Shown here piece after piece: positions 4,741 through 25,499 of a DNA stretch of 47,797 nucleotides (within the stretch, counting starts at the first letter, position 1; the number at the start of each line of letters is the position of its first letter). The position numbers and the translations under genes are program-made. Source of the stretch: a virus (Duplodnaviria; Heunggongvirae; Uroviricota; Caudoviricetes). The stretch lies in IMG/VR virus record IMGVR_UViG_2571042438_000008, one strand, 5' to 3'. Below the pieces are notes generated by a model. The model saw only the letters and a program-made list of their open reading frames with translations, did no database searches and was not told the origin of the DNA.

Positions 4741-4782
4741 TATGATTGTGGGTGTCTGGTTGGAAAGTGACCAGATATGGAA

Positions 4783-4897
4783 ACAAAAAGCCCGCAGATA
4801 AATCTGCGGGCTTCTTGCGACATCCACGGAAAACCAACAACTAACCATGGGCGCCTCGACAACTCCCATTATACGTTGGTTTTCCGTGGACGCAAGA
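4783..4897 (-). ncRNA. Candidate CopA-like antisense RNA controlling repA
   Basis: Read on the minus strand there is a 22-bp interrupted stem (4814-4838 / 4875-4896) with a 36-nt loop. It is followed by the GC hairpin GCCCGCAGA-TTTA-TCTGCGGGC (4790-4811) and a U-run (complement of 4781-4789). A weak promoter-like TAGAGA-N17-TATGTT sits just upstream on the minus strand. The position immediately 5-prime of repA matches IncFII copA/copT. Confidence 0.55.
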
Positions 4898-4905
4898 GCG
4901 AACAT

Positions 4906-5754
4906 ATGGATAGACCAATGCCGTCTCTACGTTCAGCTTACGTTTGTAATTTGTCGCCGGAGTTCCAGCCTCCAAAGCACCATACGCACAAGCTGCCGCT
5001 GGTGTTATCTGATGCTTTACAGCGCATTAATGGGCGTGATCTTACGTGTGAGGTTGCGTTCTACGTTAATCAACCGTCAGAGCGGAAGCGCCGGATAAAC
5101 GAGCATCGTCGTCGGGCGATTAATGCTGTGATCGCTGCGATTTTGCACCATGTAAACATCATTTCTAAGCGGGTTCTGGCCAGTGCTGAGGCGTTGGCTG
5201 ATTTTTGCGGCCTGTCTACCGTATCCGAAGCTGGGAACAAGTCTATAACGCGCTGTACAAGGGCGTTGTCGCAACTGAAAGCGTTAGGTTTTATTGATTA
5301 TGAACGTCGCTGGGATCGGGTGAATAAACAGTATTGGCCAGCGAAAATAGAGATTCGTGATCAACTGCTGGAAACCGTTGGTATTACTGAACAAGCATGG
5401 AGACGTGCGGTTAGCCAGAAACTTAATTACTTCAATGCGAAGAATAGCGAACGGCTTAAAAAAGCGATAACGGAGGCTGATTATAAGCGTATTGTTATTC
5501 AGGAGCAGATGGAGAATGTATGGCATCAGAGGAAGACGGCCAGAGAGATAAAGGCAAAACAGAAAGCAGCGGAGAGAGCTGCGCGTCTTGTTCGGGAAAA
5601 GGGAGAGGCCGAACTTCGTCATCAAATCACTAGAGAGGTTAGCCAGGAATTTGCTGATGGCATGTATCCTGGAGCTGACCTTGCATATTTACGATCCCTC
5701 GTTGAGCAGCGTTATAACAGGTTAAGAAAGACCTGGAAATCACTCCAACATTAA
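4906..5754 (+). CDS. repA: Plasmid replication initiator, IncFII RepA family
   Basis: 282 aa from ATG 4906; the ORF is open from 4777 but that part is the hairpin region. The core RRAINAVIAAILHH..GNKSITRCTRALSQLKALGFIDYERRWD parallels the R1/R100 RepA1 core as I recall it (RRAIDALLQGLCFHY..GKLSITRATRALTFLSELGLITYQTEYD). A DnaA box and an AT-rich origin follow the gene. Confidence 0.85.
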   Translation: MDRPMPSLRSAYVCNLSPEFQPPKHHTHKLPLVLSDALQRINGRDLTCEVAFYVNQPSERKRRINEHRRRAINAVIAAILHHVNIISKRVLASAEALADFCGLSTVSEAGNKSITRCTRALSQLKALGFIDYERRWDRVNKQYWPAKIEIRDQLLETVGITEQAWRRAVSQKLNYFNAKNSERLKKAITEADYKRIVIQEQMENVWHQRKTAREIKAKQKAAERAARLVREKGEAELRHQITREVSQEFADGMYPGADLAYLRSLVEQRYNRLRKTWKSLQH

Positions 5755-5759
5755 CCCAC

Positions 5760-6030
5760 CTGAATGATGAATCCGGTTTTACCGGAGGATTATCTACGTC
5801 GCAATAAAATATCTGTTCAAAAAACAATCTAAATTAATTTTCTCTAAACCGGAACACAGCAAAAATATCGCCTTTACAGGCATCGGCTAATAAAGTTATC
5901 CACAGTTTTGATATGTATATGCAAATGGTTTTTTATAATAGATGCACTAAACAAATAAATGCAAAATCACTTTCTTTTATTAAGACTTTCTTTATTTAAC
6001 TTACGCAGGCTTTGCCTGTGAATATGTTCG
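5760..6030. other. Probable plasmid origin (oriR-like, AT-rich, downstream of repA)
   Basis: An AT-rich, ORF-free block directly after repA, as in IncFII replicons. It contains a consensus DnaA box. Confidence 0.6.
5896..5904 (+). promoter_or_regulatory. DnaA box, perfect consensus TTATCCACA
   Basis: An exact 9-mer inside the AT-rich region after repA. Confidence 0.7.
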
Positions 6031-6342
6031 CCCTTGCAGCGAGCTAAAGCTCGCGCCGGTTCGAGTCGCTACGCTCAAATATACCTCCTCCGGCACTTGC
6101 CGGAGGCATGGAGCAGCCTGATCATCCTTTTCGAAACGGCGCGTTTCGAACTATACAAAATCAATTTATATAAGGCCGAAATAAGGCCTACGGCCGGGCT
6201 TTGCAGGAGGAAGGGGCGAGCCTTATCAATAAACGTCGAGAAATACGCACACAGTAGCCATCAGAACGCGATAAAACGTAAGAAACATCATTTCCTATTA
6301 GACATAGAAAACTTGTCTTATACGCAATGTAGTAAATTTCTA

Positions 6343-6371
6343 TTGCCACATAGGAAAAGATTTCCTACCAT
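6343..6371 (+). promoter_or_regulatory. Promoter-like element TTGCCA-N17-TACCAT with spacer palindrome AGGAAA-AGA-TTTCCT
   Basis: It has the same architecture as the triplicated cassette promoters (TTTACA-N17-TATGGT with GGGAAA-AAA-TTTCC in the same spacer position). A perfect TATAAT also lies at 6378-6383. Confidence 0.45.
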
Positions 6372-6385
6372 CGTAGATATAATAA

Positions 6386-6685
6386 ATGGAGATGGTTATG
6401 GATAAAGATACTGTTTTAAAAATGTTGAATCCGGCTTGTTTAAAAAAAGCGGATGAATGGGAATCTCCTACATGTGGAGAAGTTCGGGCAGTCATTGGCC
6501 TCACCGGAATGAGTGGCTCGCAGTTGGCCAAAAAACTAGGCTTAAAAGATAGTCGCAATGTTCGCAACTGGCAGATGTTAAAGGAGTCCACATCCAGATC
6601 CAGCATTCCGTATGCAGCCTGGGCGCTGCTGTGTTACTTCGCTGGGTTAGGGTTAATCTTCATTGATAACAAAACAGATGTTTGA
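6386..6685 (+). CDS. Small HTH DNA-binding protein (XRE-like); start may be ATG 6398
   Basis: The HTH-like segment is GMSGSQLAKKLGLKDSRNVRNW. A GGAGA sits 6 nt before ATG 6398. The stop overlaps the next ORF. Confidence 0.7.
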   Translation: MEMVMDKDTVLKMLNPACLKKADEWESPTCGEVRAVIGLTGMSGSQLAKKLGLKDSRNVRNWQMLKESTSRSSIPYAAWALLCYFAGLGLIFIDNKTDV

Positions 6686-6708: not shown

Positions 6709-6972
6709 ATGGAACTTGTACGCAAAACACGCAAAGAGTTCTTGGACCTGTATCGCATGGGAGCTTTCACTTGTGTTGTGGCTACCCAGGACGAAGTGAC
6801 AAAAAGCTGGCGGCTTTTTGCTCTCAATAAAAAAGGGATTGCCGTTTTCATTGAAAAAGCCCGTGGTGGTATCCGCGAATGGGCGGGATTGAATTATGTG
6901 GCTGATTTTTGCGCAGCTATGGGGATTCGTCGCTGGGAAGTCCATATGCCAGGAGTAAAGTCACAAAAATAG
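6709..6972 (+). CDS. Hypothetical protein (alternative starts 6682 TTG, 6697 ATG)
   Basis: GAGG lies 6 nt upstream of ATG 6709. The gene is co-oriented with, and abuts, the HTH gene. I recognise no family. Confidence 0.5.
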   Translation: MELVRKTRKEFLDLYRMGAFTCVVATQDEVTKSWRLFALNKKGIAVFIEKARGGIREWAGLNYVADFCAAMGIRRWEVHMPGVKSQK

Positions 6973-7154: not shown

Positions 7155-7206
7155 TTGAAATTATAACCCACAGGTTATATAGTTAGTGATATAAACTACA
7201 GGTTAT
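7155..7206 (+). promoter_or_regulatory. Promoter TTGAAA-N17-TATAGT with two operator palindromes (ATAACC-CACA-GGTTAT, ATAAAC-TACA-GGTTAT)
   Basis: The -35 is at 7155-7160 and the -10 at 7178-7183. IR1 (7163-7178) sits in the spacer and IR2 (7191-7206) just downstream, immediately before the toxin-antitoxin pair. Confidence 0.6.
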
Positions 7207-7216
7207 AGGATTGAGC

Positions 7217-7564
7217 ATGTGGACGGTACTTTTTAGCCAGCGATTTGACGACTGGCTAAATGAGCAAGAAGACGCTCTTCAGGAAAAGGTTTTGGCTGAT
7301 TTGAAAAAGCTACAGGTTTACGGACCTGAGTTACCCAGGCCATATGCCGATACCGTAAAAGGTTCTCGGTACAAAAATATGAAAGAGCTTCGCGTTCAGT
7401 TTTCTGGCCGTCCGATAAGAGCCTTTTATGCGTTCGATCCGATTCGTCGGGCCATCGTTCTTTGTGCAGGAGACAAAAGTAACGATAAGCGGTTTTATAA
7501 AAAACTGGTGCGTATAGCTGAGGATGAGTTTGCAGCACATCTGAACACACTGGAGAGCAAGTAA
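7217..7564 (+). CDS. higB: Type II toxin, HigB-like / RelE-ParE superfamily (phage Gp49-type)
   Basis: 115 aa. The block ..YGPELPRPYADTVKGSRYKNMKELRVQFSGRPIRAFYAFDPIRRAIVLCAGDK.. is typical of the killer-protein family. The toxin-first order with an overlapping XRE antitoxin (ATGA-type junction) fits HigBA. Confidence 0.8.
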   Translation: MWTVLFSQRFDDWLNEQEDALQEKVLADLKKLQVYGPELPRPYADTVKGSRYKNMKELRVQFSGRPIRAFYAFDPIRRAIVLCAGDKSNDKRFYKKLVRIAEDEFAAHLNTLESK

Positions 7565-7863
7565 TGAGAACATTAGATGAGGTGATTGCCAGCCGTTCAC
7601 CTGAAAGCCAGGCGCGAATTAAAGAAATGGCAGATGAGATGATTCTTGAGGTCGGCTTGCAGATGATGCGTGAAGAACTCCAGTTATCACAAAAACAGGT
7701 TGCTGAGGCGATGGGTATAAGCCAGCCAGCAGTAACAAAGCTGGAGCAGCGCGGAAATGATTTAAAGCTGGCGACATTAAAGCGTTACGTTGAAGCTATG
7801 GGAGGCAAATTAAGCCTGGATGTTGAGCTTCCTACAGGAAAGCGAGTAGCGTTCCATGTCTAA
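7564..7863 (+). CDS. higA: Type II antitoxin, HigA-like XRE-family HTH
   Basis: The HTH is LSQKQVAEAMGISQPAVTKLEQ. The start overlaps the toxin stop. Confidence 0.8.
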   Translation: MRTLDEVIASRSPESQARIKEMADEMILEVGLQMMREELQLSQKQVAEAMGISQPAVTKLEQRGNDLKLATLKRYVEAMGGKLSLDVELPTGKRVAFHV

Positions 7864-7896: not shown

Positions 7897-8181
7897 TTAC
7901 TTACCATTTTTGCGGTTTTTTTCGGACTTCATAAGCTGGCTAACGCGCCCAGGTGTGATATTTAACATGCGGCTTACTTCAGCTTGTGATCCTACTTCCT
8001 CTACTAGCGATGCAACATAGCGAGATTTTCCTGAGGAGGTTAATCCATTATATGTTGCTCGTGCGACTTTTCCCTGAGCTTCTCTCATATCAACTAATGC
8101 CTGAGCAACCTGCTCAAAACCTTTAATTGTTACTTCTGTTAATGCTCGAATAGCATCAATTTCAGATTTTGGTTTAGCCAT
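7897..8181 (-). CDS. Small DNA-binding protein with C-terminal HTH
   Basis: 94 aa with a GGAGGTG Shine-Dalgarno. The HTH-like segment is SQAEVSRMLNITPGRVSQLM. It is divergent from cassette copy 1. Confidence 0.65.
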   Translation of the reverse strand: MAKPKSEIDAIRALTEVTIKGFEQVAQALVDMREAQGKVARATYNGLTSSGKSRYVASLVEEVGSQAEVSRMLNITPGRVSQLMKSEKNRKNGK

Positions 8182-8247: not shown

Positions 8248-8339
8248 ACCATTGCTGAAATGTCTTTTTCAAGACCTTGCCAATAAGCTAAACAAAAATG
8301 TTTAATGTGCAGCCTAAAAAAGCACCAGTCACTATTATT

Positions 8340-8441
8340 TATATAATTATAGATTTATATAAAAAGTGCTTTACGGGTGGGAAAAAATTTCCTATGGTTA
8401 TACCCGAAACCGAGCGATACCCGCCCTGGTTAAACCGGAGA
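8340..8441 (+). repeat. Promoter-leader cassette, copy 1 of 3 (102 bp)
   Basis: One mismatch to 17297-17398. It consists of an AT box, -35 TTTACG (8370-8375), the spacer palindrome GGGAAAAAATTTCC, -10 TATGGT (8393-8398), and the leader ..TATACCCGAAACCGAGCGATACCCGCCCTGGTTAAACCGGAGA. Confidence 0.85.
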
Positions 8442-8448
8442 TAACCCG

Positions 8449-8829
8449 ATGAGCATGATTAAAATCCGCAAAAACGCTTTCCTTAAAATTCAAACTATCC
8501 TGGCTGGTTCTGTCGGCGTGATTTGCCGTTCTTCTTCAAGCCGCATCGATGACGGCTACGATGATGAGTATCGTGTGTCCTCGTGCGATGAGGCTTTAAC
8601 CTGGCTGAAGGAGAATCAGGAACGTGCCCAGGTATATCTGGAAACAGAGAACGGCAATCAGATGCTGCGTATTAGCGGTCGTTATGGATTTGAAACTACA
8701 TTCATGGCCTATTTTAATCAGGCTTACTTTGACAAGGAGCTGGCCTGGTACACTGACCGCATGAGCAAAAGCGAGCCAGCCCCGATTACACCGCCGAACA
8801 ATAAACCATTTTTATTCCTCGTTAAGTAA
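8449..8829 (+). CDS. Hypothetical protein (first gene behind cassette copy 1)
   Basis: 126-aa ORF starting 8 nt after the cassette GGAGA. I recognise no family. Confidence 0.6.
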   Translation: MSMIKIRKNAFLKIQTILAGSVGVICRSSSSRIDDGYDDEYRVSSCDEALTWLKENQERAQVYLETENGNQMLRISGRYGFETTFMAYFNQAYFDKELAWYTDRMSKSEPAPITPPNNKPFLFLVK

Positions 8830-8837
8830 ACACAATG

Positions 8838-8864
8838 CGCAAAGTGTCATTTTGACACTTTGCG
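8838..8864 (+). terminator. 11-bp perfect hairpin (possible terminator or RNA stabiliser)
   Basis: CGCAAAGTGTC-ATTTT-GACACTTTGCG directly after the 8829 stop. The U-tract is weak. Confidence 0.45.
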
Positions 8865-14053: not shown

Positions 14054-14710
14054 TCATAACCAGTTGACAACACTAACTACGCGGCCAAGAACTTTATAAC
14101 GCTTAAATTCCTCGTTATTCAGATGCTTAGTGTTCATTTCAGCATCCCTTTCGGTTGACAGCATAACAGCATTGTCACCCGGTATGACTCTACAGTGCCT
14201 CAAAACAACCAGGCCATTTCTGTCTTCAAGGGCATAGATCCCCTCATGAATCTCTGTATCGTCTGTATTAATCAGGACTTGGGAGCCTGGGGATATTGTT
14301 GGTGACATTAACTCATCGTTGCTCTGGAGAACTGACAGAGACGATGGGTTGATGTTCTTGCTTCGTAGAATCTCCTGTTCTATCGCCAGCACTGGCTTTT
14401 CTCCGGCGTGCGATGCTATGTCATTTTTTATAGCTACAAGCCCAGGAATAACAGGAGCGTTAGTATTCTGGGGTGGGAACGGGTTATCTGTTAAGCACGC
14501 GATATAAGGCGCTGATGCTTTCAGGGCGTGCGCGATTTTCTTGATGGCAGGTATAGATGGTTGTCTTAATCCGGCCTCATAGTTCTGCAAGGTGCTTAAG
14601 CCTATTCCAGTGACTTGCTGGAGATCTCCGGCAGTCATGCCGGATTGTTTCCGTAGAGTCTGAATGCGCAGACCTATTTCTTTCTTGATGTTCTCGTCGT
14701 TGCTTTTCAT
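14054..14710 (-). CDS. CI-like repressor (XRE HTH + S24 LexA-like C-terminal domain, catalytic dyad apparently substituted)
   Basis: The N-terminal HTH is MTAGDLQQVTGIGLSTLQNYEAG. The C-terminus aligns by eye to the S24 fold: DELMSPTISPGSQVLIN against GDSMEPTI.dGd.vlv, and GLVVLRHCRV against ..vvKRl... The gene is divergent from a Cro-like gene across an operator-rich region. Confidence 0.85.
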   Translation of the reverse strand: MKSNDENIKKEIGLRIQTLRKQSGMTAGDLQQVTGIGLSTLQNYEAGLRQPSIPAIKKIAHALKASAPYIACLTDNPFPPQNTNAPVIPGLVAIKNDIASHAGEKPVLAIEQEILRSKNINPSSLSVLQSNDELMSPTISPGSQVLINTDDTEIHEGIYALEDRNGLVVLRHCRVIPGDNAVMLSTERDAEMNTKHLNNEEFKRYKVLGRVVSVVNWL

Positions 14711-17235: not shown

Positions 17236-17296
17236 AAGTGTCATTTTGAGCTGTTTTGATGGTGTGTAGACATCGGGAACATCGAAAATCTATAAA

Positions 17297-17398
17297 TATA
17301 TAATTATAGATTTATATAAAAAGTGCTTTACAGGTGGGAAAAAATTTCCTATGGTTATACCCGAAACCGAGCGATACCCGCCCTGGTTAAACCGGAGA
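17297..17398 (+). repeat. Promoter-leader cassette, copy 2 of 3 (102 bp)
   Basis: -35 TTTACA at 17327-17332, -10 TATGGT at 17350-17355. Identity with copy 3 continues to the ATG (AATCTGATGA). An extra inverted AT word ATCTATAA lies upstream (17288-17295). Confidence 0.85.
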
Positions 17399-17404
17399 AA
17401 TCTG

Positions 17405-18472
17405 ATGAATAAACAAGTAATTATTTCTGACTGGATCAACAACCCTAACAGCCTGTTAAGCACTGATACTGGCTACCTATTACGCCATGTTAATGGTCGT
17501 ATGGTCAAAAGCGATGAGCACGAAACCTTTTTCTTTGTTGAAGACGATGGGCGTATCTATGAGGATGGTTACTCTTATGAAGCCCAAACTGGTTGTATCC
17601 CTGCGGAGCTGGTGGACGTAACAGAAGATCTGCGCAAAGCATGGCTTGAACAGCAGCAGCGCGGAGATGATTACGTAAACACCTATCAGGAACGCCAGAA
17701 CGCGCGTCTTGCCCGATATATTGCTCGTGCAGAAAAAGCCAGAAAAGAAGGTGCGGTAGCGCATAAGCGAGCGCATGACCTGTTGGATGTGATCCCGTTA
17801 GGCCAGCCGATTTTAGTTGACCATTATAGCGCGAAAGGCCATCGCCGCCGTTTGTCTAAAGCTGATGCGTTATTCAGAAAAGCGTTTGTTGAATGCGAAA
17901 GTAAAGCATCACACTACGAGAGCAAAGCCGCAGGTGTTGGTCGTAATGGAATTTCGTCTGATGATCCTGATGCGCTATTTAAGTTGCTTCGTAAGCTGCA
18001 AGGCTGCATGAAGTCACACGTCAAAATGAAGGCCGCAAATAAGGCCATTCGCAAATACAAAAAAGACCAAATACAGCAGCTTTCTGCATTAATCGATCTC
18101 AGGTTTACAGAAAGCGAAGCCAAAGAGTTACTGGCCGGAGATTTCTGTGGGCACATCGGATTCCCTTCATACGCACTGAGCAACAATAACGCCGAAATCA
18201 AACGACTACAGAGCCGTATTAAGGAGCTTGAATCGGTCAAGTCTGTAACAGGAGCACAGCGCGAAGAATACGACGGCTTTTCTATGGAGATAGATCCAGA
18301 GGATAACCGCATCCTGTTTTATTTCCCTGGCAAACCAGAGGCAAACATTCGTTCGCTGCTTAAATCACGCGCCTTTAAGTGGAGTCCAACCCGTAATGCA
18401 TGGGTTCGCAAGATTACTCCAAACGCCCTGGCTGATGCCCGATATCTAAAAGAATCGCTATTGAAAGCCTGA
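17405..18472 (+). CDS. DUF3560-family protein
   Basis: 355 aa from ATG 17405. The block GQPILVDHYSAKGHRRRLSKAD..ISSDDPDA..MKAANKAIRKY and the C-terminal FKWSPTRNAWVR fit DUF3560, a family common in plasmid leading regions. The upstream extension MVIPETERYPPWLNRRNL is just the cassette leader. Confidence 0.7.
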   Translation: MNKQVIISDWINNPNSLLSTDTGYLLRHVNGRMVKSDEHETFFFVEDDGRIYEDGYSYEAQTGCIPAELVDVTEDLRKAWLEQQQRGDDYVNTYQERQNARLARYIARAEKARKEGAVAHKRAHDLLDVIPLGQPILVDHYSAKGHRRRLSKADALFRKAFVECESKASHYESKAAGVGRNGISSDDPDALFKLLRKLQGCMKSHVKMKAANKAIRKYKKDQIQQLSALIDLRFTESEAKELLAGDFCGHIGFPSYALSNNNAEIKRLQSRIKELESVKSVTGAQREEYDGFSMEIDPEDNRILFYFPGKPEANIRSLLKSRAFKWSPTRNAWVRKITPNALADARYLKESLLKA

Positions 18473-18503
18473 CAGTAAGCCTACGGCGGGACGTCTCCCG
18501 CCG

Positions 18504-18536
18504 TATATAGAATTATATATTTATACAAATGTATAA
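18504..18536. repeat. AT box (TATATAGAATTATATATTTATACAAATGTATAA)
   Basis: AT-box family member at an operon boundary. It is preceded by the hairpin ACGGCGGGA-CGTC-TCCCGCCGT (18484-18505). Confidence 0.6.
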
Positions 18537-18549
18537 GGACGCCTCGACA

Positions 18550-18831
18550 ATGAAACGCAAAATTATTAACCCCCAAGATGTGATTAATTTCCTGACCGAT
18601 CACCCATGTTCAAAAGTGGACGTAATCGCGGAGCACATTGGTGTGTCGCAGAACTCTATGCGTTGCAGACTGAGAAGCATGGTTGCCGAAGGACAGATAA
18701 CAACCAGGAAAATAAATGGTTGCCTGTACTACTCCGCTAAACCGGAATTGCCATTTGGCATGAATCCTAACTCCATGTTGTTTAACACCTTATTAGCCAA
18801 AGTTAAGCCGTTGAGAGGGGCTGTGGCATGA
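18550..18831 (+). CDS. Winged-helix DNA-binding protein (alternative start 18529)
   Basis: INFLTDHPCSKVDVIAEHIGVSQNSMRCRLRSMVAEGQI is a MarR/wHTH-like pattern. Confidence 0.55.
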   Translation: MKRKIINPQDVINFLTDHPCSKVDVIAEHIGVSQNSMRCRLRSMVAEGQITTRKINGCLYYSAKPELPFGMNPNSMLFNTLLAKVKPLRGAVA

Positions 18832-19193
18832 GCATCAAAACCCATACCGGAATAATCATTACCAATGATGGTGAGAAAAGAGTGAAGTTGCGCGAAACGC
18901 CGACAACCTGGTGTGTTGGTCCGAAAGAAACATATCGCAAGGAAGATGGCCGTCGTTGTGGGGCACCACTTTCCCGCCGTCGCCTCCTTTTGAGCACGAT
19001 AAAACCTATCGGGCAGGTTGAGCAACCAACGACTCCGGTAACGAAGATTTCAGACAAGAGTCTGGCAAACCTGATCGCTGATGCGGACAAGGTGCTGGAG
19101 CGGAACACCCCCGTTGCAGATGAGGAATGGTGGCAGGATTTCCGAGCCGCAATGCTAGAGCTTCAGGAACGTCGTCGGGAGGAGTTGAAGTGA
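18828..19193 (+). CDS. Hypothetical protein
   Basis: 121-aa ORF with overlapping junctions. Confidence 0.55.
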   Translation: MSIKTHTGIIITNDGEKRVKLRETPTTWCVGPKETYRKEDGRRCGAPLSRRRLLLSTIKPIGQVEQPTTPVTKISDKSLANLIADADKVLERNTPVADEEWWQDFRAAMLELQERRREELK

Positions 19194-19381
19194 GCAAGAA
19201 AAATGCCGGATGGGTCAGGCCAATGAAGGCGAATAAACATCATTATTTTAATGAAGGTGAAGTAACCAGCATTTGCGGCCGTTGGATGTATTTTGGTGAT
19301 TACCGTGAGCCAGACACTTTTGAGAGTCCTGATGATTGCGTGTCTTGTCGCCGGAAATTGAACAAGGTGGCTTCTAAATGA
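19190..19381 (+). CDS. Small Cys-containing protein (GTG start)
   Basis: GTGA overlap with the upstream stop and a GGAGGAG Shine-Dalgarno. ICGRW..CVSC suggests a zinc-ribbon-like fold. Confidence 0.45.
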   Translation: MSKKNAGWVRPMKANKHHYFNEGEVTSICGRWMYFGDYREPDTFESPDDCVSCRRKLNKVASK

Positions 19382-19989
19382 AAGAACGTGGTGTTGTTTT
19401 TAATGACGATATGGTTAGGGCCATCCTCGAAGGAAGGAAGACGCAGACTCGCCGACCTGTAAAAAATGTCAGGGCCGATAACTGCCTGGTTATCCGTAAA
19501 CCGACAAAGAAACGCAATGGTGTCTATACCCACGTTATGGATGCACTGGAACATGGTTTATGCCCGTTCGGTAACGTTGGTGATCGCATATGGGTCCGTG
19601 AAACATTCAACGCTTTTTGGCTGGATAACGATGTCATTCAGGAAATCAAAGATGGTGTCTCTCTGGCTTCTGAACTGTGTGATTACAAGGCTGATTACTC
19701 AGATAGTAGCAAGCCAGCTGAGGGCTGGACCCCGTCGATTCACATGCCGCGCTGGGCTTCGCGTATTTTGCTGGAAATTACCGACGTGCGTGTGGAGCGG
19801 CTGCATGACATGAGCGAGGCAGATGCTAAAGCAGAAGGCGCATCTCCGGTGACGTACAAGATTACACCGCCGGAAGCTGTTTATCGCGTTGGCTTTGGTG
19901 ATATCTGGCGCGGTATTTACGGGCAAGAGAACTGGCTATCTAACCCGTGGGTATGGGTAATTGAGTTTAAGCGTATTAAGGAAGCATAA
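19378..19989 (+). CDS. ASCH/PUA-like domain phage protein
   Basis: FNDDMVRAILEGRKTQTRRP..GDRIWVRE..SIHMPRWASRILLEITDVRVERLHDMSEADAKAEG is a signature I recognise from ASCH-like phage proteins. Confidence 0.55.
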   Translation: MKERGVVFNDDMVRAILEGRKTQTRRPVKNVRADNCLVIRKPTKKRNGVYTHVMDALEHGLCPFGNVGDRIWVRETFNAFWLDNDVIQEIKDGVSLASELCDYKADYSDSSKPAEGWTPSIHMPRWASRILLEITDVRVERLHDMSEADAKAEGASPVTYKITPPEAVYRVGFGDIWRGIYGQENWLSNPWVWVIEFKRIKEA

Positions 19990-19991
19990 CT

Positions 19992-20336
19992 ATGAGCAAA
20001 TCACTTAACGCACGCTGCATCCGTCGCTGGACCGTCGAATTTAAAGGCCGCTGCGACTCAAAATATAGCCCGTATTGGCGTAAGCGCGACCTGCGGGGGT
20101 ACATCCGTGAGGTTGCACTGAACACCGCGGATTGCATGGTCGAGCGTATGGCCGAGGATAATGCGATGGTAGATTTTCAGGGGGCTAATCGAGGATGGTC
20201 GCCGGAGTTCTCAGCCTGGTACCACGAACGCCGTGAACAGTATCTCAAAGAGGCGCGCGACCATCTGAACGAAGACGCCACCAATGACGAGGTTGACGAG
20301 GAGATTCAGAACGAGCTGGAGGCCTGGAATGACTAA
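19992..20336 (+). CDS. Hypothetical protein
   Basis: 114-aa ORF. Confidence 0.55.
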   Translation: MSKSLNARCIRRWTVEFKGRCDSKYSPYWRKRDLRGYIREVALNTADCMVERMAEDNAMVDFQGANRGWSPEFSAWYHERREQYLKEARDHLNEDATNDEVDEEIQNELEAWND

Positions 20337-21045
20337 CAGCACAGCAATTAACTATCAGGCACTACGTGAGATAGCAAAACAGGCAACACAAGGCGAATGG
20401 GTCGCATTTATTTCGTCGGGTACTGGTACATATGCGGTGCATACACCCGGTGATAAACGATGTGAAGACGTTATCAAATGGACCGGCTTTGACGGACAGA
20501 AAAACGCAGAGAACAACGCTCGTTATATCGCAGCTTTCAACCCAGAAGTAGTGCAGGCGTTGCTGAATGAACGGGAAGCACAAAGCAAACGCATTGCTGA
20601 ACTGGAGGCCAGTCGTGCGGCGCTGGCGGCGGAGAATGCAGGGCTTAAGGCGATATGTGATGACCGTCGCAGGTTCATCATGAATGGGGTGCAGACGGGT
20701 TATATCAAGGTGCCAACAGCGGAAACAGCTCCAGACCTTGAGACAATTCGCATTGCTATATCACCACAAAAGCCCATTCCAGCCACCGATGCTTTCCTGG
20801 CTGAAATACGTGCGGAGGCACGCAACGAGGGGATTAACTACACCGCAAGCCGTCTTGCTGCTGCGTTCAATCACGGATTTATCAATAAGTCTTTGCGTGA
20901 AGTTTTCGACGTTACACGCATGATTTTGTCAGCGAAAGAAGAGTTGGCTAATGAACCGCACCCGATTGATGGCCTGTCCGGTGAATATGCGGAGAAATCT
21001 CTTGAGGAGTGGGCGGAACAGATTCGTAAAGGAGGCGACAAGTGA
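20329..21045 (+). CDS. Ead/Ea22-like family protein
   Basis: The N-terminus ..LREIAKQATQGEWVAF..YAVHTP.., the phrase ENNARYIAAFNPEVVQALLNE and a coiled coil fit the family. ATGA overlap with the upstream gene. Confidence 0.6.
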   Translation: MTNSTAINYQALREIAKQATQGEWVAFISSGTGTYAVHTPGDKRCEDVIKWTGFDGQKNAENNARYIAAFNPEVVQALLNEREAQSKRIAELEASRAALAAENAGLKAICDDRRRFIMNGVQTGYIKVPTAETAPDLETIRIAISPQKPIPATDAFLAEIRAEARNEGINYTASRLAAAFNHGFINKSLREVFDVTRMILSAKEELANEPHPIDGLSGEYAEKSLEEWAEQIRKGGDK

Positions 21046-21233
21046 GCAATTTAGCGAGGCTACGAGCAGTATTTAGATATTCAGAGCGGGTAATGAGGCA
21101 CATACAACCGAAAACATGGCAGAAATTGGATTCTGTGGGAGTTAAGTTGGAGAAGATTACTCAACTTAAGCAGTGGAATATCGGCGAATATTATGGAAGT
21201 CCTGGTCGGGATGTTCAGTTGGTAAAAAGTTGA
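21042..21233 (+). CDS. Hypothetical protein
   Basis: 63-aa ORF with a GTGA overlap. Confidence 0.4.
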   Translation: MSNLARLRAVFRYSERVMRHIQPKTWQKLDSVGVKLEKITQLKQWNIGEYYGSPGRDVQLVKS

Positions 21234-21378
21234 ACATTGCTTTTTTATTGATCGATTAACCACGATATGAAGGTTTTTTTATGGGGAAACCTTGTTTTAG
21301 GTGGTAACTGGGTGTAGTGTTTCATTTAACGTAGTAAAACTGCGTTAAGCGATTACCGCGTAATTTGTTGCTTTATGA

Positions 21379-21410
21379 AGCCCTGCCTTTTTCGGCGGGG
21401 CTTTTTTTTT
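21379..21410 (+). terminator. Strong rho-independent terminator immediately upstream of the lysis genes (tR-prime-like)
   Basis: AGCCCTGCC-TTTTTC-GGCGGGGCT followed by T9. Confidence 0.8.
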
Positions 21411-21423
21411 AACGAGGATTTCA

Positions 21424-21819
21424 ATGTCAGCAGAACCAATTTCCGGTACGGCCGTTGCTGCTGGTGGCCTGATGGGTGCCAGCGTTTTTGGTATTGCAAC
21501 TGGTATTGATTACGGCGTTGTATTCGGGGCATTTGCTGGCGCTGTTTTCTATGTTGCTACAGCGGTGAATATTAGCCGTCTCAAGCTGATTGGCTATTTC
21601 TTTACATCGTTCATTGTTGGAGTGATTGGAGCGCCGTTAGTTGGCTCATTTCTTGCTAAATGGACCAGCTACAACGATCGTCCTCTGGATGCGCTTGGTG
21701 CGGTTATTGTGGCTGCATTGACCATTAAAATCCTCACGTTCGTAAACAGCCAGGATCTCGGTAGCATCTTTGGAATGCTTTCCCGCTTACGTGGAGGGGG
21801 TTCAAATGGTAAGCAGTGA
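21424..21819 (+). CDS. Multi-pass membrane protein, holin/antiholin candidate
   Basis: 131 aa with Gly/Ala-rich predicted TM segments. It is the first gene of the lysis cassette. Confidence 0.45.
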   Translation: MSAEPISGTAVAAGGLMGASVFGIATGIDYGVVFGAFAGAVFYVATAVNISRLKLIGYFFTSFIVGVIGAPLVGSFLAKWTSYNDRPLDALGAVIVAALTIKILTFVNSQDLGSIFGMLSRLRGGGSNGKQ

Positions 21820-23199: not shown

Positions 23200-23275
23200 G
23201 GCCCCTTAGCTCAGTGGTTAGAGCAGGCGACTCATAATCGCACGGTCATCGGTTCAAATCCGGTAGGGGCCACCA
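23200..23275 (+). tRNA. tRNA with anticodon CAU, tRNA-Ile2 (ileX-like) rather than Met
   Basis: A 76-nt cloverleaf, GGCCCCTTAGCTCAGTGGTTAGAGCAGGCGACTCATAATCGC..GGTTCAAATCC..GGGGCCACCA, with the anticodon at 23233-23235 and an encoded CCA. The 5-prime half is identical to E. coli ileX as I recall it. The acceptor stem has C4-G69 and C5-G68. Confidence 0.9.
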
Positions 23276-23483
23276 ATTCACTCTCACACATAAAGATAAG
23301 CGCGGTGGAGTTACTTCCTTCGTGCTCATCTTTATGCGTGCCTGGTGCGCATTTCGGGCGAACGTGGGGCTAAGTTACAGGCAGGGCCTGTTATCCGCAA
23401 AGGGGTAAAAGCTGGAGCGGCACGGAACTGTAGCCGTGTTACCAAAACAGCGTTGTCGGGCGATATCCGGCACACAACAGGCA

Positions 23484-23515
23484 AGGGCATTAATCAGTCT
23501 GGTTAGTGCCCTTTT
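23484..23515 (+). terminator. Rho-independent terminator candidate
   Basis: AGGGCATTA / TAGTGCCCT form a 9-bp stem with an 11-nt loop, followed by TTTT. Confidence 0.5.
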
Positions 23516-23583: not shown

Positions 23584-24171
23584 ATGGAGGCAATTGCATT
23601 GTTTAATCTGATTTATGCAGATCCCCCCTGGGAATACAAAGATAAGTGTAAGGATGGGAATCGTGGAGCTGGTTTTAAGTATCCAACGATGAAAGCTGAG
23701 GATATTGCTCGTATTCCTGTCTGGCAGCTTGCTAATCCTGAATCGTGTTTGTTGGCCATGTGGTGGGTTCCGACTCAGCCAGAAGAAGCGTTGCTGGTGG
23801 TGAAAGCATGGGGATTCAGGCTTATGACCATGAAGGGCTTCACATGGAACAAATGTGGTAGCCGACAACCAGATAAGCTGGTGATGGGGATGGGGCATAT
23901 GACTCGTGCAAACAGTGAAGATTGCTTGTTTGCGGTAAAAGGCAAATTGCCGACCCGCCTTGATGCGGGGATCATTCAGTCGTTTACATCGCCTCGTCTG
24001 GAGCATTCTCGGAAGCCTGATGTGGTTCGTGACAAGCTGGTAAGGCTGTTAGGTGATGTTCCTCGTATTGAGCTGTTTTCTCGCGGTGATTTACCTGATG
24101 GTTGGCATGGCTGGGGCAACCAGTGCAATGGAGGTATCCAGTTGCATGATGCTCTCTGGCAAGTGGCATAA
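23584..24171 (+). CDS. MT-A70 family DNA N6-adenine methyltransferase
   Basis: DPPW catalytic motif (IYADPPWEY). FKYPTMK and EHSRKPD are typical MT-A70 blocks. Confidence 0.85.
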   Translation: MEAIALFNLIYADPPWEYKDKCKDGNRGAGFKYPTMKAEDIARIPVWQLANPESCLLAMWWVPTQPEEALLVVKAWGFRLMTMKGFTWNKCGSRQPDKLVMGMGHMTRANSEDCLFAVKGKLPTRLDAGIIQSFTSPRLEHSRKPDVVRDKLVRLLGDVPRIELFSRGDLPDGWHGWGNQCNGGIQLHDALWQVA

Positions 24172-24174
24172 AAT

Positions 24175-24276
24175 TATATAATTATATATTTATATAAAAA
24201 GTGCTTTACAGGTGGGAAAAAATTTCCTATGGTTATACCCGAAACCGAGCGATACCCGCCCTGGTTAAACCGGAGA
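24175..24276 (+). repeat. Promoter-leader cassette, copy 3 of 3 (102 bp)
   Basis: One mismatch to copy 2. -35 TTTACA at 24205-24210 and -10 TATGGT at 24228-24233. Confidence 0.85.
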
Positions 24277-24282
24277 AATCTG

Positions 24283-24552
24283 ATGAAAGTACAAGACCGT
24301 GAAGTAGTAAAAAACCTCCTGCAATACCTGACCTCAAAAAACCTGACGGGCAGCGTTGAGTTCCGTGAAGCGTTAAAACATTTCAACGTCACTACGGTTT
24401 ATCGTTGGGAAAACAAACATTCTGAAAGACCGTATGTGGTGGATGTTTTTGCGCCTGATATTGAGTGCGGTTTTGAGCGTCATTCGTTCAAGGAGAAACA
24501 TTCTGCTGATTTTTTTTGTGAGGTTGTATGTGCGGCAGGAGATGATGAGTGA
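24283..24552 (+). CDS. Hypothetical protein (first gene behind cassette copy 3)
   Basis: 89 aa from ATG 24283 (GGAGA Shine-Dalgarno). The upstream extension in the ORF track is the cassette leader. Confidence 0.6.
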   Translation: MKVQDREVVKNLLQYLTSKNLTGSVEFREALKHFNVTTVYRWENKHSERPYVVDVFAPDIECGFERHSFKEKHSADFFCEVVCAAGDDE

Positions 24553-24749
24553 TGCGTATTTCCTTCAAACGTGCGACTGAGCAGCAACGCAAAGAGTTCC
24601 TGGCTGATGATGTTGCGGCCGTTTATGACCTCATGAAAGAGGTTGTGGAATCAGGGAACTACACGGCGGCAAAGATGCTTAAACTGCAATTCTTGCTGGG
24701 CGACCTGAAATACAAATCCGAAGTTGTCGCCGGACGACGCGAGCATTAA
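24549..24749 (+). CDS. Hypothetical protein
   Basis: 66-aa ORF with a GTGATG overlap. Confidence 0.5.
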   Translation: MMRISFKRATEQQRKEFLADDVAAVYDLMKEVVESGNYTAAKMLKLQFLLGDLKYKSEVVAGRREH

Positions 24750-24771
24750 ACCGTAACGATAACGAACAACG

Positions 24772-24798
24772 AGCCTCGGCAATTGCCGGGGCTTTTTT
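24772..24798 (+). terminator. Rho-independent terminator
   Basis: AGCCTCGGC-AATT-GCCGGGGCT followed by T6. Confidence 0.8.
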
Positions 24799-25469: not shown

Positions 25470-25499
25470 AGCCTCGCGGTGTCGCGGGGCTTTTATTTT
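25470..25499 (+). terminator. Rho-independent terminator
   Basis: AGCCTCGCG-GTGT-CGCGGGGCT followed by TTTTATTTT. Confidence 0.8.

Follow-up and report, generated by a model that had tools for sequence, protein, structure and literature searches.

Four promoters of this phage genome carry the same palindrome between their -35 and -10 hexamers, which raises the question of the protein that reads it. Three of these promoters belong to direct repeats of about 115 bp, here called cassettes, in which an AT-rich stretch, a promoter and a leader of about 50 nt precede the start codons of three different genes; the fourth, unrelated in appearance, precedes a small HTH gene. Two candidate regulators had been put forward in the first-pass annotation, namely the HTH protein itself, which would be autoregulated and control the three cassettes, and a Q-like protein encoded next to one of them. 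The window, that is, the whole stretch of 47,797 nucleotides that was analysed, has been compared with its relatives and with a number of plasmids, and, on the evidence of these sequence comparisons, the palindrome most likely serves as operator for a KorC repressor of the plasmid type, whose gene lies immediately behind the fourth promoter.

The element and its relatives

Over the region compared, the window is approximately 99% identical to the Yersinia phages vB_YpM_39, vB_YpM_41 and vB_YpM_44, and the cassette is found three times in each of about 65 plasmid records (47-51 kb), of which 61 come from Escherichia; the records include one in E. coli ATCC 25922. An IncFII RepA, a ParA-like protein, a CI-like repressor and a HigB/HigA pair are encoded together with a holin, a lysozyme, a terminase and myovirus structural genes, a combination that identifies the element as a phage-plasmid. 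This family of about 48 kb is not mentioned among the curated phage-plasmid groups in the passages of Pfeifer et al. consulted. The 'pseudolysogenic' phage vB_YpM_HQ103 was set aside, as the paper on it describes an unrelated 32-kb P2-like phage. The HigB (Gp49/DUF891) and HigA (HTH_3) genes occupy 7155-7863 and possess their own promoter, TTGAAA-17-TATAGT, with the repeat ACAGGTTATA present twice; a tRNA-Met gene (23200-23275) separates the lysis genes from the MT-A70 methylase gene. The features on which the following sections are based are collected in Table 1.

Table 1. Positions, strand and character of the features of the window discussed in the text.
Feature	Position	Strand	Remarks
IncFII RepA gene	4777..5754		
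Promoter of the korC-like gene	6343..6371	+	TTGCCA - 17 bp - TACCAT; found by consensus scan
Predicted operator, perfect 17-bp palindrome	6351..6367	.	covers part of the spacer and 2 nt at the start of the -10
korC-like gene of the predicted repressor, 95 aa	6398..6685	+	ORF opens at 6386; homology to KorC
87-aa ORF (PHROG 4595)	6709..6972	+	PHROG match 1.8e-47
Cassette 1	8334..8448	+	AT-rich dyads; TTTACG (8370-8375)-17-TATGGT (8393-8398); predicted operator 8378-8394; conserved leader
Cassette-1 gene, 126 aa, PHROG 8090	8449..8829	+	bidirectional terminator 8838-8864 behind it
CI-like HTH / weak S24 peptidase repressor	14054..14710		
Q-like gene, 125 aa	16858..17235	+	follows the RecA-dependent nuclease and DUF1064 genes; cassette 2 comes directly downstream
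Cassette 2	17289..17404	+	promoter 17327-17355; predicted operator 17335-17351; leader
Cassette-2 unit	17405..21404	+	DUF3560 protein 17405..18472, MarR-like protein, accessory genes; strong terminator 21377-21404
Cassette 3	24167..24282	+	promoter 24205-24233; predicted operator 24213-24229; leader
Cassette-3 unit	24283..24794	+	small genes 24283..24552 and 24549..24749, then terminator 24771-24794

One palindrome in a fixed register at four promoters

The motif GGAAANNNTTTCC has four exact matches in the window, at 6353, 8380, 17337 and 24215, against a dinucleotide-preserving expectation of 0.10, and at least four matches were obtained in none of 100 shuffles; its 14-base version TRGGAAANNNTTTCCTA is found at the same four places only and did not occur in any of 100 shuffles. 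The earlier proposal that GGAAA-N3-TTTCC is common to the four promoters is thus borne out, with the qualification that three of the four sites lie inside the direct repeats, so that the palindrome has two independent occurrences and not four. Its full extent is 17 bp with 7-bp arms, T(A/G)GGAAA-N3-TTTCCTA. The site in the promoter of the korC-like gene is a perfect palindrome, TAGGAAA-AGA-TTTCCTA; the cassette sites read TGGGAAA-AAA-TTTCCTA, with six of the seven left-arm positions matched and a G where the korC site has an A.

A consensus scan recovers TTGCCA-17-TACCAT for the fourth promoter and TTTACA-17-TATGGT for those of cassettes 2 and 3, the -35 hexamer previously given for all cassettes being correct for these two only, since cassette 1 reads TTTACG. 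At all four promoters the 13-bp palindrome takes up the 13 bp of the 17-bp spacer nearest the -10, as had been noted, and its register relative to the hexamers is identical, the final TA of the 17-bp form being the first two bases of the -10. When the fourth promoter is aligned with the cassettes, similarity is confined to the -35/operator/-10 block.

A KorC homologue encoded behind the fourth promoter

The small HTH gene had been placed at 6386..6685; its start is probably the ATG at 6398, which gives a protein of 95 aa, because this codon is preceded by the Shine-Dalgarno sequence GGAG at 6388-6391, PHROG 8351 aligns from residue 5 of the protein, and the Yersinia phage record annotates 95 aa. 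Searched with tblastn against plasmids, the protein matches 3926 records, in which, below the near-identical ones, come genes annotated as korC or KorC in IncP and other plasmids, with 30-51% identity. In a BLASTP comparison it is 51% identical over 80 aa to KorC of the IncP-1 plasmid pAKD15 (E 3e-23), and an alignment of six KorC proteins contains 20 invariant columns. No Pfam or NCBIfam model fires for the protein, and its family membership rests on the pairwise and tblastn homology. An AF2 model (pLDDT 84) has as its top Foldseek match the HTH domain of AcrIF24 (33% identity, TM 0.67, probability 1.0), followed by Aca1 bound to palindromic DNA and then by restriction-modification controller proteins (C-proteins) and HigA2; a phmmer search of the PDB sequences also gives AcrIF24, at 1.5e-5. 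The AcrIF24 HTH domain, Aca1, the controller proteins and HigA2 are dimeric HTH proteins that bind palindromes in promoters. By homology and modelled fold, then, the 95-aa protein is a KorC homologue with a predicted fold like that of Aca-type repressors.

The 87-aa ORF that follows is possibly co-transcribed with the korC-like gene and had been regarded as its partner. It is absent after korC in three related lineages (L130, L131 and L257/L258), where the next module directly follows korC; it is therefore not an obligate partner, and would appear to be lineage-specific cargo instead. Neither Pfam nor NCBIfam gave a family for this ORF or for the cassette genes. On the other side of the korC promoter, a non-coding stretch of about 590 bp (5755-6340) lies between the IncFII-type RepA gene and the promoter, and is the probable origin. 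In RA3, KorC-controlled transcription has reportedly been proposed to activate oriV.

The same operator design in KorC plasmids

In the plasmid stretches examined, TAGG-N9-CCTA is restricted to the klcA, kle and orf02 promoters. The IncP-1 plasmid pAKD15 has two sites, TAGGACATTTTGCCCTA and TAGGGCATTTTGCCCTA, placed some 70 nt ahead of the start codons of klcA and kleA (0.03 expected in 10 kb). Two copies of TAGGACAAAATGTCCTA stand before the klcA-like and kle-like genes of the IncP plasmid pGDZJ002-1 (KorC 41% identical; 0.04 expected), and three sites, TAGGCCATTTTGGCCTA, TAGGCCGATTTGGCCTA and TAGGCCAAAATGGCCTA, before orf02 and klcA in the RA3-like IncU module of pGN26-KPC (KorC about 30-35% identical; 0.04 expected). 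An IncP-1-like metagenomic contig (L254, KorC 52% identical) has a single site before klcA, TAGGGCATTATGCCCTA, directly after the KorA operator GTTTAGCTAAAC. These plasmid operators were identified by their uniqueness and position together with the RK2 OC, which we take to be TAGGGCATAATGCCCTA and with which the palindromes found here agree.

The plasmid palindromes are TAGGGCA-N3-TGCCCTA in IncP-1, TAGGACA-N3-TGTCCTA in pGDZJ002-1 and TAGGCCA-N3-TGGCCTA in the IncU-like module, and in every replicon the last TA opens the -10 (TAATAT, TATAAT or TATACT), as it does in the window. The outer TAGG/CCTA is thus common to all, and the three inner bases go with the clade, being GCA or ACA in IncP, CCA in IncU and AAA in the window. 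The recognition helix reads K-D-S-R-N-V-R-N-W-Q in the window clade versus (D/S/T)-R-T-(I/V/F)-R-R-W in IncP and IncU, and the residues that differ may be those that read the operator core.

The likeness extends beyond the operator. Promoter and leader can be aligned from the -35 to the ATG among IncP-1, pGDZJ002-1, the IncU-like module and the window with its relatives, the stretches in common being AAAGTGCTT(T/G)ACAGG, the operator and ...GGT(T/C)AA..ACCGGAGAA..C.GATG; judged by this alignment, the cassettes are homologues of the IncP-1 and IncU klcA, kleA and orf02 promoter-leaders. The genes that the cassettes drive are unrelated to those behind the plasmid kil promoters, and homologues of KorA, KorB, Kle, Klc and orf02 were not found in the window, which suggests that the module that moved consisted of the repressor and the promoter-operator-leader.

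Conservation of the predicted operator among relatives

In relatives whose KorC is 69-72% identical to that of the window, neither the korC promoter nor the cassettes show any change in the arms of the palindrome, the variation lying in the central 3 bp and the flanks. Two IMG/VR contigs (KorC 72% and 71%) have the korC promoters TTGCAA-GT-TAGGAAATATTTTCCTA-CCAT and TTGCAA-TG-TAGGAAAATATTTCCTA-CCAT, and their cassettes carry a perfect TAGGAAAATATTTCCTA followed by a diverged leader; an Enterobacter relative (KorC 69%) has TTGCAA-TT-TAGGAAAATATTTCCTA-CCATCG before korC, and a K. aerogenes relative has a perfect site before the DUF3560 gene and another after the MT-A70 gene. When about 200 nt upstream of korC are aligned for four lineages, the sole invariant block is TTGC(C/A)A-NN-TAGGAAA-NNN-TTTCCTACCATCG. 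The central triplet is AGA, AAA, ATA or TAT, and such fixed arms around a variable centre are the pattern that would be expected for a dimer contacting the arms. The arms never vary within the phage-plasmid clade, so that covariation of operator and protein is visible only between families. The multi-promoter arrangement, with one site directly upstream of korC, comprises four sites in the window and is kept in the relatives.

A scan of genome contigs with TAGGAAANNNTTTCCTA returned 120 loci from unrelated taxa, none with a KorC-like or Q-like gene, and these are therefore taken as chance matches at this database size; a scan of viral contigs with the 15-mer AAAGTGCTTKACAGG gave mostly chance matches, the useful relatives being L014-L064, L122, L015 and L049. 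Natural variants of the cassette exist in L014 (IMG/VR 3300018477_000024) and several other IMG/VR loci, some with the -10 TAAGGT and not TATGGT, and one IMG/VR variant has a broken right arm, GGGAAAAAAATTCCTA.

Several further elements surround the cassettes. All three have, immediately before the -35, the AT-rich dyads TATAATTATA and TTTATATAAA (8343-8368, 17300-17325 and 24178-24203), which could be an UP element or a second operator; the TTTA-NN-TAAA of the cassettes occupies the place held in the IncP-1 klc and kle promoters by the KorA operator. Divergent from cassette 1, on the - strand, is the gene of a 94-aa HTH protein (PHROG 15590, 7897-8181) that resembles KorA over 17 HTH residues only (E 0.015). 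Between the Q-like gene and cassette 2 there is a tandem 9-bp repeat, CATCGGGAA / CATCGAAAA (17271-17288), which has no counterpart at that place in the K. aerogenes relative L259. A structured leader RNA was also considered and dropped, as the consensus prediction amounted to a 4-bp helix only, with no compensatory changes. The MT-A70 methylase gene precedes the two small genes of the cassette-3 unit.

The Q-like protein and the late-gene terminators

The Q-like protein has no match in Pfam or among the PDB sequences and a weak full-length match to NCBIfam PA0613_fam, for which the literature searched gives no function. Its model (pLDDT 77) has Q21 structures as its top Foldseek matches, which are weak (E 0.28-0.9, TM 0.44-0.54). 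Strong intrinsic terminators are present on the + strand at 21377-21404, 23483-23513, 24771-24794 and 25470-25491; the first abuts the ribosome-binding site of the holin gene (ATG at 21424), and those at 24771-24794 and 25470-25491 abut the ribosome-binding sites of later genes. Strong terminators set against ribosome-binding sites imply that expression of the lysis and structural genes depends on processive antitermination. The Q-like protein is more probably the antiterminator for the terminators preceding the late genes than a binder of the palindrome, a role made plausible by its lambdoid Q position and by the placing of these terminators.

A candidate circuit for KorC in the phage-plasmid

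We infer binding, repression and the timing of expression from the observed sites and their geometry, the homology of protein and promoters, and the match between KorC clade and operator core. It is probable that a KorC-family HTH protein represses the four palindrome promoters, its own and those of the three cassettes, and that a kil-kor module has moved to a phage-plasmid; the circuit is read as such a module because the cassettes are related to the klcA, kleA and orf02 promoters of IncP-1 and IncU. The original suggestion of an autoregulated HTH protein acting on four promoters gains weight from the homology to KorC, from the same operator design and register in KorC plasmids and from the conserved block in the korC promoter. 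A KorC-like dimer would bind the 17-bp palindrome; since this site takes up the spacer of four sigma-70 promoters and reaches into their -10, the bound repressor would occlude RNA polymerase. The operator in the promoter of korC would provide negative autoregulation and a homeostatic level of repressor, and the three cassette operators would control three terminator-ended units, 8449..8829 (terminator at 8838), 17405 to about 21263 (terminator at 21377), and 24283..24749 (terminator at 24771). By analogy with the zygotic induction of klcA, which exceeds 100-fold on entry into a new cell (PMC7314908), entry of the DNA into a KorC-free cell would be expected to give a burst of cassette expression, to be shut off as KorC accumulates. 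The literature searched contains no paper linking KorC to phage-plasmids.

Alternative explanations

Among the alternatives, the least probable is that the fourth site arose by chance or is a relic of common descent with no regulatory role. That the independent occurrences number only two, three of the sites being copies of one repeat, works in its favour, but by chance 0.10 matches to the 10-base pattern and about 0 to the 14-base one would be expected, all sites stand in the same register to the -35 and -10, the fourth promoter and the cassettes have no common sequence beyond the shared block, and this block is invariant in lineages with wholly diverged flanks. It is also very unlikely that the palindrome serves another regulator, whether a host factor or one of the HTH proteins encoded nearby, of which there are several: the HigA-like protein (7564..7863), the 94-aa HTH protein (7897..8181) and the CI-like protein (14054..14710). 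The operator core shifts with the KorC clade across replicons that have enterobacterial hosts in common, which speaks against a host factor; at the HigBA promoter the repeat is a different one, and the intergenic region of the CI-like gene itself is without such a site. Moreover, the site is kept upstream of korC in L257 despite different neighbouring genes.

The KorC-like protein might also bind the palindrome and act as an activator, or remodel the spacer in the manner of MerR. A site in the spacer, where MerR-type activators bind, and the imperfect -10 hexamers (TATGGT, TACCAT) would suit such a role, which nevertheless is very improbable, given spacers of the optimal 17 bp as against the 19-20 bp typical of MerR targets, the fact that the characterised KorC proteins are all repressors (PMC7414963, PMC7314908, PMC12365149), and closest structures that are Aca-type autorepressors. 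Still less probable is that the palindrome is a QBE from which the Q-like protein, once bound, would be loaded onto RNA polymerase at all four promoters in the manner of lambda Q at PR'. The lambdoid position of the Q-like gene directly upstream of cassette 2, the Q21 structures among the matches of its model and the terminators at the holin and later genes, which call for antitermination somewhere, are in keeping with such a role. Nevertheless, operators and promoter-leaders of this design are also found in the IncP and IncU plasmid stretches examined, which showed no Q gene; the match to Q21 is a weak one; and in the K. aerogenes relative L259 a 146-aa gene separates the Q-like gene from the cassette, so that this second candidate of the first-pass annotation is not supported as the binder. 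The site of Q21 consists of two 8-bp subsites in direct repeat and adjoins a sigma-dependent pause element (10.1101/651190), whereas the element of the window is a palindrome, and no -10-like pause element (TAnnnT) is conserved in the leader, which has TATACC in the window and GACAAC or AGTAAC in the relatives. In addition, the fourth promoter drives a repressor gene that has no terminator to overcome. A reading that keeps KorC at the palindrome and adds to its role, tentative and rather doubtful, is that KorC acts as a second key of the lysis-lysogeny switch, with cassettes 2 and 3 equivalent to PR' and a Q21-like antiterminator taking transcription from them past the terminators at 21377, 23483, 24771 and 25470 into the lysis and structural genes; these late genes would in that case be expressed only once CI is lost, so that Q is made, and KorC repression is relieved as well. 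In a variant of this reading the cassettes would be anti-defence or establishment loci, expressed in a burst on entry under an Aca-like KorC.

Implications

With KorC as the predicted repressor, one known mechanism covers three identical promoter cassettes and a fourth promoter that looks unrelated to them, and it supplies a specific candidate repressor and a 17-bp operator that can readily be tested. The KorC promoter-leader-operator module is portable, being found in IncP, in IncU and in a phage-plasmid family, each with its own core and matching recognition-helix residues, and these families offer a natural set for studying the evolution of HTH specificity. A plasmid global repressor would thereby be placed on units inside the rightward lytic gene stream of a phage that is common in E. 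coli.

Comparison with known systems

The systems of lambda Q and Q21 with a QBE at PR' have in common with the window a site in the late promoter region, a gene in Q position upstream and terminators before late genes; the window differs in that its site is palindromic, that it has no conserved sigma-dependent pause element, and that the design also exists in plasmids in which no Q was seen. Aca1, Aca2 and the AcrIF24 HTH domain, the closest solved folds, are dimeric HTH proteins acting on palindromes in a strong promoter, and Aca proteins damp the early burst of expression after DNA entry. They control, however, a single acr operon, and no anti-CRISPR gene was identified in the window; the likeness noted here is one of fold and sequence.

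Parallels are also provided by the KorC plasmids. In the IncL plasmid pOXA-48, where korC is essential for maintenance, the promoter of the korC operon has a single predicted KorC site, set between its -35 and its -10, and autoregulation has been proposed (PMC12365149); no further operators have been reported there (PMC12365149), whereas the window has three additional target promoters. KorC of the IncU plasmid RA3, compared here through the pGN26-KPC module, is the main global regulator of RA3 (PMC7414963, PMC9455977) and acts on several promoters, through an operator in the same register as that of the window and with a homologous leader. The two proteins are about 30-35% identical, and korC of the window has an operator in its own promoter, in contrast to that of RA3, which is reported to be expressed constitutively from a weak promoter (PMC7414963).

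In the IncP-1 system (RK2/RP4, pAKD15), KorC of RP4 represses klcA, kleA and kleC and belongs to the global repressors that are autogenously regulated (PMC12365149, PMC10871194, PMC7314908). IncP-1 and the window have in common a small HTH repressor (51% identity), a 17-bp TAGG-xxx-N3-xxx-CCTA palindrome whose last TA starts the -10, several near-identical promoter-leader cassettes, a repressor gene under its own operator, and a homologous leader up to ...ACCGGAGAA..C.GATG. They differ in the operator core, AAA/TTT in the window and GCA/TGC in IncP-1, and in the recognition helix, where the window has N58 and N61 in place of T and R; in the position of korC, which has its own short promoter in the window and stands at the end of the klcA-klcB-korC operon in IncP-1; and in the cargo and replicon, the window being a myovirus phage-plasmid whose cassettes drive phage-plasmid accessory genes and which has no KorA, KorB, Klc or Kle homologues. 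Taken together, these comparisons suggest a circuit of a known kind, that of KorC and kil-kor, in which the operator specificity, with its AAA core, and the phage-plasmid setting would be new.
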